Positions 27,142-56,648 of a DNA stretch of 64,000 nucleotides are shown here, piece after piece. Under the pieces are notes generated by a model that saw only the letters and a list, made by a program, of their open reading frames with translations, made no database searches and was not told the DNA's origin. Made by a program: the position numbers and the translations under genes. Within the stretch, counting starts at the first letter, position 1. Each line of letters starts with the position of its first letter. The stretch is taken from the sequence record MT446422.1. One strand, given 5' to 3'. Origin of the DNA: Escherichia virus TH57.

Positions 27142-27147
27142 TTATAG

Positions 27148-27170
27148 GGAACCTTCGGGTTCCCTTTTTG
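27148..27170 (+). terminator. rho-independent terminator after soc
   Basis: GGGAACC ttcg GGTTCCC followed by TTTTT. Confidence 0.6.
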
Positions 27171-36196: not shown

Positions 36197-36457
36197 ATGA
36201 AATATATTAATCGTTCTATTGCCGCGCTGGTTTTGGCAGTTTCATTGACTGGTTGTACTGATGCAGATAATGCTGTTCGCGTATTAGATGCAAACGGCTA
36301 TGAGCAAATCCAAATCACCGGATATAACTGGTTTGGATGCTCTAAAGATGATTTCCAGCATACTGGTTTTACAGCAGTGGGTTCAACTGGTAAGAAAGTT
36401 GAAGGAACTGTTTGTTCTGGATTGTTGTTCAAGAATTCAACCATCCGATTTGAATAA
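36197..36457 (+). CDS. putative lipoprotein (86 aa)
   Basis: Signal peptide with lipobox LTGC; followed by hairpin terminator. Confidence 0.5.
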   Translation: MKYINRSIAALVLAVSLTGCTDADNAVRVLDANGYEQIQITGYNWFGCSKDDFQHTGFTAVGSTGKKVEGTVCSGLLFKNSTIRFE

Positions 36458-36474
36458 GGCCTTCGGGCCTTTTT
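36457..36474 (+). terminator. rho-independent terminator before gene 39
   Basis: AGGCC ttcg GGCCT followed by TTTTT. Confidence 0.55.
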
Positions 36475-38551: not shown

Positions 38552-38575
38552 GGTCTCCTTCGGGAGACCTTTTTA
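38552..38575 (+). terminator. rho-independent terminator
   Basis: GGTCTCC ttcg GGAGACC followed by TTTTT. Confidence 0.6.
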
Positions 38576-42318: not shown

Positions 42319-42332
42319 GGGGCTTCGGCCCC
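42319..42332 (+). promoter_or_regulatory. RNA hairpin GGGGCUUCGGCCCC after rIIB
   Basis: Identical 14-mer to that at 12972; 8 nt after rIIB stop, before the next RBS. Confidence 0.4.
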
Positions 42333-47589: not shown

Positions 47590-47684
47590 GTTTTGGAGTT
47601 GAGTTTGCATTGCTTTGTATTTTCGCGGCAATCGCGGGTGTGATTGTTGGTATGTTTATTGGTAATAAGATAGATAAAGACTAG
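47586..47684 (+). CDS. small membrane peptide (32 aa)
   Basis: ATG overlaps gp52 stop (ATGA); followed by terminator. Confidence 0.3.
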   Translation: MSFGVEFALLCIFAAIAGVIVGMFIGNKIDKD

Positions 47685-47706
47685 GGCCCTTCGGGGTCCT
47701 TTTTTA
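47684..47706 (+). terminator. rho-independent terminator after gene 52 region
   Basis: GGGCCC ttcg GGGTCC (imperfect) followed by TTTTTT. Confidence 0.5.
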
Positions 47707-50846: not shown

Positions 50847-51122
50847 ATGACTAAATTTGAAATTGTTTCTGAAATTGTTACTATAACTTCAATTTTGATT
50901 AAAACCGACCGGGAAGATATTACGATGAAGCGTGATGTGTTTATCGCGTTTTTGAATGAGTTGGGATTAAGGAATGAGAATGGTAATGAGTTAAACAATG
51001 TATCGTTTAACAAGTTGTTTAAAAGTTTATCTGAAGATGAAATTGAACAAATCATTGAACAATTTAACGAAGGATTCGAAGATATACACCGATATCTGAT
51101 GATGTATACCTCCGGATTCTAA
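50847..51122 (+). CDS. asiA: anti-sigma-70 factor AsiA
   Basis: 91 aa; matches recalled T4 AsiA (ILIK..REDI, FIAFLNE, EQFNEGFE..YRYLMMYT). Confidence 0.85.
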   Translation: MTKFEIVSEIVTITSILIKTDREDITMKRDVFIAFLNELGLRNENGNELNNVSFNKLFKSLSEDEIEQIIEQFNEGFEDIHRYLMMYTSGF

Positions 51123-51772
51123 CGTGTACGCCCGAGCGTACGACCTGCTTGCCCACACATAGCAGAAAGCCTATCAAAACTAAGGTCGGGTTTTTGCTTA
51201 TACCAGTACAGCGAGACTGTACCTGCATAAACGTTTTCCAAATTAAAGAATGGGCAGCTGAACATATATTCGAAGCTGCTTTTTTTCTTTGTTGGTAAGA
51301 ATACAGATTCCGTGCCGGATTCAAAATAATTACCATTAACCCCCGCCAAATATTCCGCTGAAGTTTTATCTATTGGAAACCCACCCAAGTTTTTTTCGTC
51401 GACTGTATCAGGTAATATCCCCTCATAACCCACCATATCCACGAAGTAGTTAAGGTTAGTTGGTCTAAAAGAATATATTGCTGTAAAGTCTGCCCCACTT
51501 GATGAGTGAACTATCTGGATTTGCTCGATAGCTGCAATTTTAAATCTGTTATCCTGGTCTTGCCTTATCATTTCTGTGTACGAGGCATATGAAGCATCCC
51601 TATACGCATCTAAAATTGCATCACCTTTATACCAGATTACCGCCATTAAAAATAATAGAACAATAACTAGTACCCGGGAAAAAACAACTTTCCCGGTTGC
51701 ATTATCTTTAAAAATTCTATCAAGAAGTCCAAAAAGTAGGTCGGGTATTGAGATTCCTACTTTTGGTTCCAT
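51119..51772 (-). CDS. t: holin T
   Basis: 217 aa; matches recalled T4 holin (DLLFGLLDRIFKDNATGKV, N-terminal TM segment, C-terminal SAMCGQAGRTLGR); late promoter upstream. Confidence 0.9.
   Translation of the reverse strand: MEPKVGISIPDLLFGLLDRIFKDNATGKVVFSRVLVIVLLFLMAVIWYKGDAILDAYRDASYASYTEMIRQDQDNRFKIAAIEQIQIVHSSSGADFTAIYSFRPTNLNYFVDMVGYEGILPDTVDEKNLGGFPIDKTSAEYLAGVNGNYFESGTESVFLPTKKKSSFEYMFSCPFFNLENVYAGTVSLYWYKQKPDLSFDRLSAMCGQAGRTLGRTR
51126..51141. promoter_or_regulatory. palindromic hairpin at the convergent asiA/t junction
   Basis: GTACGC ccga GCGTAC just past the overlapping stop codons of asiA and t. Confidence 0.35.
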
Positions 51773-51790: not shown

Positions 51791-51798
51791 TATTTATA
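51791..51798 (-). promoter_or_regulatory. late promoter TATAAATA for holin gene t
   Basis: TATTTATA on plus strand (TATAAATA on minus) 19 nt upstream of t start; AAAGGAG RBS. Confidence 0.55.
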
Positions 51799-51812: not shown

Positions 51813-52358
51813 TTATTTTTTAAACAATCCTTTGAAGAATGATTTTTTCTCTTTCTCTGGCCAAGCCGGGAATTCACCACCAAGGTGTTCGTGTTTTTCT
51901 AAAAGAGCAAAGAAACGTTTAAGATTCTGGTGATAGAATTTTTCTTTCTTATCGGCGACTGAGGCTTCAACCATATTACTTAATACCTGGAATTCTTTAT
52001 ACAAATCGTCAATTTTTCGATTACGAATTAAAACGCGTTTATAGGTTTCGTCTTCTTTCCAGCCATCGTCGGTCCACACATCAAATTCACCAGGCTCGTC
52101 AAAAGATATACCGACTGGGCTTCCTATGTCATTTATTAAGATTTCTTCTTTATTAAAAGTCCATGCACGTTTGCCTCGATGGTCTTCTTCATAAATCCAA
52201 TCTTGAACGCGTTCATCAAATACAACGGCGAAACCTTCTTTAGGTTCCAATGGTTCCTTTGTGGTTGAGTGAGCCGGGAGACCAAGACCTTTAATGGGTT
52301 TATAATTTTCTTCTTTGTAAAATTCTTTTGTGTCAAAATAAAAATGATAAATTTTCAT
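51813..52358 (-). CDS. 38: gp38, T4-type tail fibre assembly protein
   Basis: Matches recalled T4 gp38 from MKIYH..YFDTKEFYKEENYKP; start taken at ATG 52358. Confidence 0.85.
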   Translation of the reverse strand: MKIYHFYFDTKEFYKEENYKPIKGLGLPAHSTTKEPLEPKEGFAVVFDERVQDWIYEEDHRGKRAWTFNKEEILINDIGSPVGISFDEPGEFDVWTDDGWKEDETYKRVLIRNRKIDDLYKEFQVLSNMVEASVADKKEKFYHQNLKRFFALLEKHEHLGGEFPAWPEKEKKSFFKGLFKK

Positions 52359-52389
52359 ATTCAAAAGGGGCCGAAGCCCCCTCTCCTTA
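52358..52389 (-). promoter_or_regulatory. gene 38 translation initiation region with SD and AUG separated by a hairpin
   Basis: Minus strand reads TAAGGAGAG, GGGGCTTCGGCCCC hairpin, UUUUGAAU, AUG; SD-to-AUG spacing about 22 nt. Confidence 0.55.
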
Positions 52390-55300
52390 TGCTAAACGAA
52401 CGATATAGTTAAAAGCAATGTTTTTAACCGTGTTTTCTGTATTACCTGTACTATTTACAGTGATAGTATGACCGTGCGAACCAATTGCTACCGAGTGGGT
52501 ATGAGCACCAATACCTACAGTATGTGTATGGGCACCAATACCTACAGTATGCGCGTGGTTACCTGTGGTACTTGTGGTTCCTGACCAAGAGTGGGTATGA
52601 GCACCATCATTTGATGTTTTACCAATAGAGCTACTAATACCGATAACACTGGTTGAATTAAATCCAGTCATACCAGACGAGGCAGATACTGAATTAACAC
52701 CGTCTGGAAATAACCCGTTTGGATTATTTCCACTCGAATATCTAGGACCTGAACGAGCGTGCTGGTGAGCACCGGCTGAACTGGTAGTACCACTTACTGT
52801 ATGGTTATGGTTGCCAGTAGTATTACTGGTTTTAGTACCATAGTCAAAACTTGAAGAGGTCTTAGTGCCATAATCAAAGCTTGATGTAGTTTTAGTACCT
52901 AAATCAGTATTAGATGCTGAAGCACTATGGTTATGAGCCTTAACACCATCAGCTTCGGCACTCAACACCGCACGTCCACTTGGTTTACCTTTAATAGTCT
53001 GCCCGCGCATATCCGGAATAGTACCTGTAGGATATGCAACAGCAAGCTTAGGATAAGCACCTGTATCAAAGGTCTGACCTTCCATCAAAGCAAATCCAGC
53101 AGGAACTGAATCACTTGGCCACGGAATCGGAGCGCCAACAGGATAAGGTATCTGAGCATCGGAGTACATCATATACACTTGTCCACGCAGATGACCGGTA
53201 GGTAATTCTGTCACAGGTGTTTGATATCCACCATTAAGTCCAATTACCGAAATATAACGGGTATTTTCCGTGGCGTCATATTCAACTATAAGTTTGTCTG
53301 CATAAGTCCCGGCATACAGATAAACATCATAATCATCACCGGAGGTATTAATTGTTGCTATATTAGTAAATCCATTACCCGTGCGCCCCCATAAGGTAGC
53401 GTTAATACCTTTAGGATTGTCATTACTGGTACGAAGAACTACTTCAGTAATTGTAGCCTGTTCCGGTGAATTTACATTGTATCCATTACCACCTATAATC
53501 TTAAATTGAGCAGTTGATACCGACTGTGGCATAGTTACAGTAGCAAATTTATACCAACCTGCAGTTGAACTACCAGACCAAGTGCCAACATTAACTTTAC
53601 GGTCTAAAGTAGTGTTCAGGTTTTTAAAGTTTTCTAATGCAGTGCTGCCTGTAATATTACCGTCAGGACCAATACGAACATCGGAACCAATTTTAAGTGC
53701 CTTGGTTATATCAACAGTATCAGAGTTTAATGCAATACCATGGGAGTAGGTATAGTTATGTAAACGAACAACGTTGCCGCCGTCGCCGATACCGAGATAC
53801 CATTTTGTAACATCTGCTTTACGACCCTGGATAAAGTTGGATGACGCCTGAGAAGAAGCATTTACCACAATGGCGTCGGAATCCATATTAACACGCAATC
53901 TACAGTCGGTCTGAACAAATTTACTTACGTTGTCTACTGTAAAAAGTGGACCGCCTGTAGAAGTTTTATTACCCATTATAACCGTGCCATTAGCCAAATT
54001 AATGGAAAGCGGGCGAAGGTCGCTTATTCCACCGTTTTCACCGGCATTCTGAAGAGTAGGAATAAGATGGAATGAAGCAGAAGAACCTGTTTCTGAACGA
54101 CGGAAAATCATACCATATTCAGCGTTCCAAATTCTTAATGCATCTGCGGTACCGCCCATTTTAACTTGGCCGTTAATTGAGGCCCCACCTTGGACAAACA
54201 AACCGTTAGACATAGTAACATTGCCACCAAAAGAACCCTTACCTGAAGCGGTAATATCACCAAGACCAACGATATGACCTGTTTCAACAGTTCCATTAAA
54301 CTTAAAGTTGACAGGGCCAACACCATCTGCAACGGCAGGGTTTGTACGTTGGGCATAAAAATAATAACCTTGTGAATCTGAAACTTCCCATACTGTTTCA
54401 CGATTACCTTTTTCGGCGTTAAATGAGTTACCCCATGCCTTAATTGTAACTGTATTTTTGTTCTGGCCATTTCGGGTACCAGCGTCCCAGTTAATTGTTT
54501 TAGTACCATCTACACCGGAAGGAGCTTTAAATGATAATGCATTGGTATTGTCATCACCGTTTAAAAATAAACCAGTACGCATAGAAATGCGATTGGTAGA
54601 GTCAAATGTACCATCTGCTCTAATAGCAACTCTATTGGACCCGGTTTTAACATCTAAAATACCTGGCTCAACAAGAAGCCCGTCGCCCATACTAACAGAC
54701 ATACGACCTTGGCCACGGAAATAGTGATACATCTTTGCATTGCTGCTATAACCGATATGAGTCTGACCATCACCATTATTATTACCGTCGACATCAGTGC
54801 GCGCGGTAAACATTGCCTGATTGCTATTAGGGAAATCCCATGTAGTACCAGAATCACGGCTATAACCAACCATCAATTTCTTAGTGCTGTTAATACCGTT
54901 GTTCAAAACGGTAGCAGATGAAATACCGTTGGCCATCAGGTCATAAACGCCATCACGAACCCATTTAATACCGGTGTCATTATCACCAATTGCAATACCG
55001 ATAGAAATGGCAGAATCTAAAGGATAGCGTCCATTTGTACCATTATCCGGAAGACCTACAGAAATTGATTTACCCGCAGTAATACGTCCGGAGTTATCAA
55101 ACGCCCATTGGAAAGATGAAGGACCCACACCAGTCCACCAAGAAATTTCTTGTGGTTTACCTTTGCGACAATCAGCAATTTCATGGAAAATACTTGATGC
55201 ACTTGATGCACGCAATTTACGCAAATAGTTTAAACCATTAGTAGTATCATCAGAACCATCGGCAGGCGGGTTATAAACCCAAGTAGGTAAAGAAACCCAG

Positions 55301-56640: not shown

Positions 56641-56648
56641 TATTTATA
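56641..56648 (-). promoter_or_regulatory. late promoter TATAAATA for gene 36
   Basis: TATAAATA on minus strand between terminator hairpin and gene 36 RBS. Confidence 0.55.

Follow-up and report, generated by a model that had tools for sequence, protein, structure and literature searches.

A probable split ribosome-binding site bridged by a C(UUCG)G hairpin upstream of tail fibre assembly gene 38 in a Gaprivervirus, orthologous to the gene 38 initiation region of phage T4

The window analyzed here, i.e., the entire 64,000-nucleotide stretch of Escherichia virus TH57 DNA (MT446422.1), represents a VR7/P896-like Gaprivervirus (93-94% identity over the tail-fibre region) with the gene order 34-35-36-37-38-t-asiA, as in VR7 and T4. 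The products of genes 37 and 38 are the distal subunit of the long tail fibre and a T4-type tail fibre assembly chaperone, respectively (Table 1). The gp38 protein is 93% identical to its counterpart from VR25 and 87% identical to T4 gp38; a tblastn search started with this protein also reaches lambda Tfa (28%). The aligned flanks, this level of identity to T4 gp38 and the gene order 36-37-38-t, which is the same in T4 and VR7, identify the gene 37-38 junction of the window as the ortholog of the T4 junction. Pfam yields no family for gp38 or gp36, and an Rfam search at the gathering threshold detects zero families in the whole 64-kb window.

On the minus strand, the junction reads ...GTT CGT TTA GCA TAA GGAGAG GGGGCTTCGGCCCC TTTTGAAT ATG AAA ATT.... 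The putative Shine-Dalgarno sequence (SD), UAAGGAG, overlaps the gene 37 stop codon and is complementary to the 3' end of 16S rRNA over 7 nt, with a computed duplex energy of -9.0 kcal/mol. The SD is separated from the AUG by 22 nt if GGAGAG is taken as its 3' boundary and by 24 nt if the core GGAG is; in either case, it lies farther upstream than the limit of about 15 nt beyond which an SD is considered too distant. No alternative SD is present within the normal range of 5-13 nt before the gene 38 AUG, which is occupied by the spacer UUUUGAAU. Between the SD and this spacer lies the 14-nt sequence GGGGCUUCGGCCCC, in which a UUCG loop is closed by a C-G pair on a Watson-Crick stem, so that it qualifies as a C(UUCG)G tetraloop hairpin. 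The first-pass annotation, which was made from the sequence of the window, had placed GGAGAG, a 14-nt UUCG hairpin, 8 nt and the AUG in this order after the gp37 stop, with an SD-AUG spacing of about 22 nt and a gene 38 start at ATG 52358. Every coordinate in this description proved exact, and the spacing agrees when measured from the end of GGAGAG. The start codon is confirmed for annotation as well, given that the annotated relatives share it. The alternative start chosen by the open reading frame tool, an in-frame TTG at 52364, is not conserved and was rejected because T4 has CTA, and TuIb and VR7 have CTG, at the corresponding position, and because the ATG is the annotated start in all annotated relatives.

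Table 1. Features of the gene 37-38 junction, late-promoter-like motifs and strong UUCG hairpins in the window
Feature	Position	Strand	Basis or remark
Gene 37, long tail fibre distal subunit, 1186 aa	52387..55947	-	ORF; Pfam Collar and gp37_trimer; matches VR7/P896 gp37
Gene 37 stop TAA	52389-52387	-	Sequence
SD UAAGGAG, overlapping the gene 37 stop codon	52383..52389	-	7 bp to the 16S 3' end
GGAGAG	52386-52381	-	Sequence
Core hairpin GGGGC-UUCG-GCCCC, 14 nt, 5 G-C pairs, C(UUCG)G tetraloop	52367..52380	-	
U/A-rich 8-nt spacer between hairpin and AUG	52359..52366	-	Without SD-like sequence
Gene 38 start ATG	52356..52358	-	Same start annotated in T4, TuIb, VR7 and P896
Gene 38, T4-type tail fibre assembly chaperone, 181 aa	51813..52358	-	ORF from ATG
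Predicted extended stem, AGAG (52384-52381) with UUUU (52366-52363)	52363..52384	-	Minimum free energy (MFE) fold; A-U and G-U pairs
CAUA (last gp37 codon GCA and UA of the stop), predicted partner of UAUG	52388..52391	-	MFE fold
Late-promoter-like TATAAATA upstream of gene 36	56641..56648	-	Motif scan
Late-promoter-like TATAAATA in the gene 38 3' end, just upstream of holin gene t	51791..51798	-	Motif scan
Late-promoter-like TATAAATA	61730-61723	-	Motif scan
Holin gene t	51772..51119	-	Pfam PF11031
Other strong C(UUCG)G hairpins	12970-12987, 15162-15181, 27146-27165, 36456-36471, 38552-38569, 42319-42332, 47683-47700	+	
Other strong C(UUCG)G hairpins	57668-57651, 56673-56656	-	

A motif scan of the minus strand detects no TATAAATA between 56641 and 52390, so that gene 38 has no late promoter motif of its own and would be read from the 36-37-38 message. 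The start of this late transcript is likely the motif located upstream of gene 36. In the same region (56673-56641, minus strand), the hairpin AAGGACCTTCGGGTCCTT comes after the gene 35 stop and precedes TTTTCAT and TATAAATA, with gene 36 starting about 25 nt downstream, so that a terminator-like hairpin compactly adjoins a late-promoter motif.

Folding of the segment 52395-52350 (46 nt, minus strand) with RNAfold, the check proposed in the first-pass annotation, predicts a stable structure with an energy of -17.6 kcal/mol (z = -3.25; 1 of 200 shuffled sequences folds as well). The core hairpin with its five G-C pairs and UUCG loop accounts for -10.6 kcal/mol when computed alone, and the four weak AGAG/UUUU pairs that extend the stem bring the predicted total to -14.9 kcal/mol. 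Beyond a 3x3 internal loop, CAUA forms an outer helix of 4 bp with UAUG (52359-52356), i.e., the base preceding the AUG and the AUG itself; this helix contributes the remaining -2.7 kcal/mol and is predicted to mask the start codon. Accordingly, the structure that had been described as a 14-nt hairpin is recovered in the MFE fold, but its extent was underestimated, the weak stem extension and the AUG-pairing helix being part of the same fold. In the fold ensemble, the probability that the AUG is unpaired is 0.08 for the window and 0.05-0.18 for other T4-type junctions. Because both the AGAG portion of the SD and the AUG are paired in the predicted fold, the model implies that the resting initiation site is partly closed in free mRNA.

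The computed energies favor an initiation route in which the core hairpin is retained. Opening of the SD and AUG region with the hairpin kept is estimated to cost 5.1 kcal/mol, less than the 9.0 kcal/mol supplied by the SD:anti-SD duplex, compared to 17.6 kcal/mol for melting the entire structure. These values suggest that the 30S subunit opens the weak outer pairs rather than the CUUCGG hairpin, so that the hairpin would remain folded between the SD and the P site. In the predicted fold, a stable local hairpin is contained entirely between the SD and the AUG, and the residual SD-AUG spacing is a functional 5-8 nt, depending on the number of weak pairs that are counted.

These features, combined with the orthologous relationship to the T4 gene 38 initiation region, make it probable that the junction is a split ribosome-binding site that is bridged by the hairpin. 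Under this scenario, genes 36, 37 and 38 would be read from a single late transcript on which the only sequence complementary to the 3' end of 16S rRNA is UAAGGAG, with GGAG ending 24 nt upstream of the AUG. The C(UUCG)G hairpin would be too stable to be melted by 30S binding and would be kept folded, with 14-18 nt looped out, which would bring the AUG within the residual distance given above. The weak AGAG/UUUU and CAUA/UAUG pairs would partly close the site in free mRNA, would be cheap to open and would be opened by ribosomes completing gene 37. Because the outer helix includes the last codon and the stop of gene 37, each ribosome that finishes gene 37 should open it. Both the persistence of the hairpin on the ribosome and the dependence of gene 38 translation on the hairpin are suggested by the published work on T4 and by the energetics.

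An MFE fold that hides half of the SD as well as the AUG, taken alone, appears inhibitory and argues against bridging. It could indicate instead that most translation of gene 38 is due to ribosomes coming directly from termination at the gene 37 UAA, with the structure serving to exclude free 30S subunits and so to limit gp38 and couple it to gp37 rather than to enhance initiation. The MFE folds of the window, T4, TuIb and the Mosigvirus-type junction all pair the AUG with the final codon and stop of gene 37, with the low accessibility indicated above (0.05-0.18); the SD overlaps the gene 37 stop codon; and gene 38 is always located downstream of a translated gene 37, with no late-promoter motif directly before it. 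The T4-type gp38, moreover, is a chaperone that is required in lower amounts than gp37, which is compatible with such coupling. Nevertheless, the helix on which the exclusion of free ribosomes would depend consists of 4 bp worth only -2.7 kcal/mol, shows no covariation, and has two of its four pairs broken in LF82-41. Furthermore, the T4 structure is considered to be enhancing, not inhibitory (PMC3014915). Re-initiation as the main route to gp38 is therefore rather unlikely; coupling to gene 37 does not conflict with bridging, however, and may simply be superimposed on it.

Comparison with related phages shows that the architecture of the putative split site is conserved. Searches for relatives of gp38 yield few environmental loci (3 in IMG/VR scans and 4 in metagenome contigs), and the junctions were therefore gathered one by one from GenBank phage records. 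A 101-nt sequence spanning the junction is matched by 199 phage records at 80-99% identity, none of them identical, with the best match (99%) in DCP80. The T4-type comparison included 21 junctions that represent 10 distinct sequences besides that of the window. All these junctions consist of TAAGGAG, the hairpin, a U/A-rich spacer of 8-10 nt and ATG. The TAAGGAG sequence is invariant in all 11 distinct junctions, the window included, and in none of these 11 is there a purine-rich SD in the 8-10 nt before the AUG, the spacers of the relatives being UUCUGAAU, UUCUAAAU, UUUUUAUAAU or UUUAUAAUA. The stem is GGGGC/GCCCC in most of the junctions, GGGC/GCCC in T4, GGGAC/GUCCC in the Mosigvirus-type junctions and GGGCC/GGCCC in LF82-41, and the loop is UUCG, occasionally UUCU or UUAG. 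Among the 10 distinct junctions, 97.5% of the pair cells in the alignment hold standard pairs, compared to 42-63% when the 3' partners are slid, and one stem pair covaries as G-C, A-U or C-G, with zero mismatches. Thus, the alignment points to maintenance of the stem by compensatory change among the relatives; the covariation is real, and its extent is modest, being confined to one pair. The CAUA/UAUG pairing is kept in 9 of the 10 distinct junctions, and the exception is LF82-41. The linear GGAG-AUG spacing varies between 22 and 26 nt, partly because the length of the hairpin changes (12 nt in T4 and 14 nt in others); under the convention of the T4 literature, in which the stem is taken to reach the final G of GGAG, a manual count gives a residual spacing of 5 nt for both T4 and the window, and of 7 nt for the Mosigvirus-type junctions and LF82-41.

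In place of the GGAGAGGGGC or GGAGAAGGGAC of the 21 related junctions, the window contains GGAGAGGGGGC, i.e., there is an extra G at 52381 (minus strand), the fifth in the G-run 52381-52377; this 5' G-run is one G longer than that of any of the 199 matching records. This one-base homopolymer difference, which may be real or may be a sequencing error, adds a G-U pair and 1 nt of spacing.

Upstream of the junction, the last ~45 nt of gene 37 (GTTAAAAACRTTGCTTTTAACTATATCGTTCGTTTAGCATAA, 52430-52387, minus strand) are nearly identical across clades in which gp38 is only 63% identical. Such conservation at the nucleotide level suggests either a recombination joint or constraint beyond coding. To the extent that it reflects recent recombination rather than selection, it weakens the case for bridging as a selected feature.

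The hairpin is not limited to phages that encode a T4-type gp38. A GC hairpin follows the gene 37 stop in phages with the T2-type gp38, namely, T6, RB18, teqsoen, pSs-1, RB69, QL01, Pet-CM3-4 and Roth80. In these annotated gene 37-38 junctions, the hairpin is located 1-6 nt past the gene 37 stop, as in the window, and is often identical in sequence. Unlike the T4-type junctions, however, those of the T2 type have the SD (GGAG, GGAGG, AAGGA or GAGGA) on the 3' side of the hairpin and at a distance of 5-8 nt from the AUG, which leaves the site unsplit. The T2-type gp38 is an adhesin that is unrelated to the T4-type chaperone gp38. The same organization is found in Citrobacter phage Moon (33% identity between its gp38 and that of the window): the hairpin is present, and the SD is located downstream of it, at normal spacing. 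Farther afield, JSE (Krischvirus, EU863408, locus 82-135) possesses a hairpin with reversed arms, GCCCC-UUAAAU-GGGGC, followed by a U-run and then GAGGA; it lies 18 nt past the stop of an upstream ORF whose only annotation is "hypothetical". No hairpin was found in RB49, a relative of JSE that lacks gene 38.

In Salmonella phage Lv5cm (MZ150757), the hairpin between genes 37 and 38 is fused to a second, incomplete copy of the gene 38 5' end (ATCTATCATTATTATTTTGACACAAAAGAATTTTACAAAGAAGAAAATTA; locus 97-200), and the junction lacks the upstream GGAG; either recombination at the hairpin has left a scar, or the sequence is an assembly artefact.

The gene 38 hairpin also has multiple counterparts elsewhere in the window. 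The window contains 29 stems of 4 bp or more that are closed on a TTCG loop, against an expectation of 10.5 +/- 3.2, an enrichment that speaks against chance as the source of the gene 38 hairpin, and the exact 14-mer GGGGCTTCGGCCCC is found three times (at 12972, 42319 and 52380, the latter on the minus strand). About 10 of the hairpins are strong C(UUCG)G structures, and 9 of these 10 are located within 7 nt of the stop codon of the upstream ORF; among the nine other than the gene 38 hairpin (Table 1), eight show this proximity and five are followed by a T-run, as in terminators. The gene 38 hairpin is the only one of the ten that is inserted between an SD and its AUG. The other nine either precede the SD of the next gene, or are followed by U-runs, or lie within a longer ORF. 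At 12970-13030 (plus strand), the hairpin ATGGGGCTTCGGCCCCAT is followed by GGAG, and a 338-aa ORF is open from an ATG formed by the 3' arm of the hairpin; this ORF contains two more in-frame ATGs, the last one with a canonical GAGGA SD, and its true start is ambiguous.

In another reading, the hairpin after gene 37 would reduce read-through into genes 38 and t by acting as a weak intrinsic terminator or attenuator. Such a role might seem compatible with the sequence that follows the GC hairpin, UUUUGAAU in the window (5 U in 8) and UUUUUAUAAU in the Mosigvirus-type junctions, and with the presence of a late-promoter motif of its own upstream of holin gene t (51798-51791). Yet a terminator scan of the window does not flag the gene 38 hairpin; its stem of 5 G-C pairs is the shortest among the hairpins of the window, those resembling terminators having 6-8 pairs; the T4 stem is followed by UUCUAAAU; and in RB69, T6, Moon and other phages with orthologous hairpins, just 1-3 U precede the SD. 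In addition, strong termination would abolish the essential function of gene 38, because this gene lacks its own promoter motif. Termination is an unlikely role for the hairpin, and weak attenuation after gene 37 as its explanation is very improbable.

A different possibility is that the hairpin is only a general intercistronic element, e.g., a barrier to 3'-exonucleases or RNase E or an insulator of the adjacent initiation region, like other CUUCGG hairpins located after stop codons in T4-like phages, and that gene 38 is initiated via its A/U-rich leader and S1, with no need for the upstream SD. The location of 9 of the 10 strong UUCG hairpins close to an upstream stop codon is consistent with a general function of this kind, as are the presence of the hairpin together with a downstream SD in the eight T2-type phages and Moon, the JSE hairpin, and Lv5cm, where the hairpin occurs without any upstream GGAG. 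Indeed, the same hairpin is retained in RB69, T6, Moon and other phages with a downstream SD, which counts against bridging to the extent that conservation of the hairpin alone cannot be taken as proof of it. What speaks for the bridged site is the invariance of TAAGGAG combined with the lack of an alternative SD in all T4-type junctions, and the published interpretation of the T4 site, which is bridging (PMC3014915). Thus, a hairpin with no part in gene 38 initiation is distinctly unlikely; a general role leaves room for bridging and is more likely to account for the original presence of the hairpin.

Because the hairpin is found also in the phages with the T2-type gp38 and in Moon, it appears, from the comparison of the junctions, to be a general element that follows gene 37, with the SD on its 5' side only in the T4-type chaperone cassette. 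Bridging would then be an accommodation of this cassette to a pre-existing hairpin. There is, in our estimate, an even chance that the hairpin is an old post-gene-37 element of the Straboviridae with a function of its own and that the split site arose secondarily, with the SD coming to lie 5' of the hairpin as a lambda Tfa-like chaperone gene replaced, or alternated with, the adhesin-type gene 38, so that it also throttles gp38 and couples it to gp37. If so, the original function of the hairpin could be, for example, protection of the gene 37 mRNA, insulation of the next start, or marking of a boundary for the exchange of gene 38 cassettes. The series of junctions amounts to a natural experiment, with the SD before or after the same hairpin, stems of 4 or 5 G-C pairs and spacings of 22-26 nt. 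Although it raises no new question, it can be used for testing how the ribosome makes room for a folded hairpin located between the SD and the P site.

The closest known system is T4 gene 38 itself. According to Uzan and Miller (2010; PMC3014915), who cite Nivinskas et al. (1999), T4 genes 38 and 25 have a suboptimal SD-AUG spacing that is made functional by intervening RNA structure, the spacing for gene 38 being reduced from 22 nt to 5 nt; mutations that destabilize such structure are reported to lower initiation. The T4 precedent that the first-pass annotation had invoked, a hairpin that brings a distant SD to the AUG of gene 38, is therefore real, and the conservation claimed there is borne out by the orthology of the junction and by the retention of the stem in every T4-type junction examined. 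The observation is correct, and the arrangement is one already known from T4, seen here in an ortholog, so that the T4 gene 38 arrangement extends to a Gaprivervirus.

The window and T4 share the same genes and position, TAAGGAG overlapping the stop of gene 37, the CUUCGG hairpin, a spacer of 8 nt rich in U/A, ATG AAA AT as the beginning of gene 38, and a residual spacing of 5 nt after the extended stem. They differ in the length of the stem, with 5 G-C pairs and a 14-nt hairpin in the window versus 4 pairs and 12 nt in T4, in the linear GGAG-AUG spacing (24 nt versus 22 nt), and in the pair at the SD end of the stem, which is G-U in the window and G-C in T4 (TTCT to TTTT). Description of the longer stem as a compensated base-pair insertion relative to T4 is only half right. 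The common type of stem combines 4 G with 4 C, compared to 4 G with 3 C in T4 and 5 G with 4 C in the window; the surplus G, one each in T4 and the window, pairs with U.

With respect to structure, the gene 38 hairpin resembles the C(UUCG)G hairpins of T4 mRNAs in its C-G-closed UUCG loop, short GC stem and intercistronic location; the UUCG tetraloop was first discovered in T4 mRNA (PMC4371310). T4 gene 25 follows the same principle, with a hairpin between the SD and the AUG that shortens the spacing from 27 to 11 nt and is kept in close T-even phages but absent in distant ones (PMC3014915). It is, however, a different gene with an unrelated sequence and is absent from the window.
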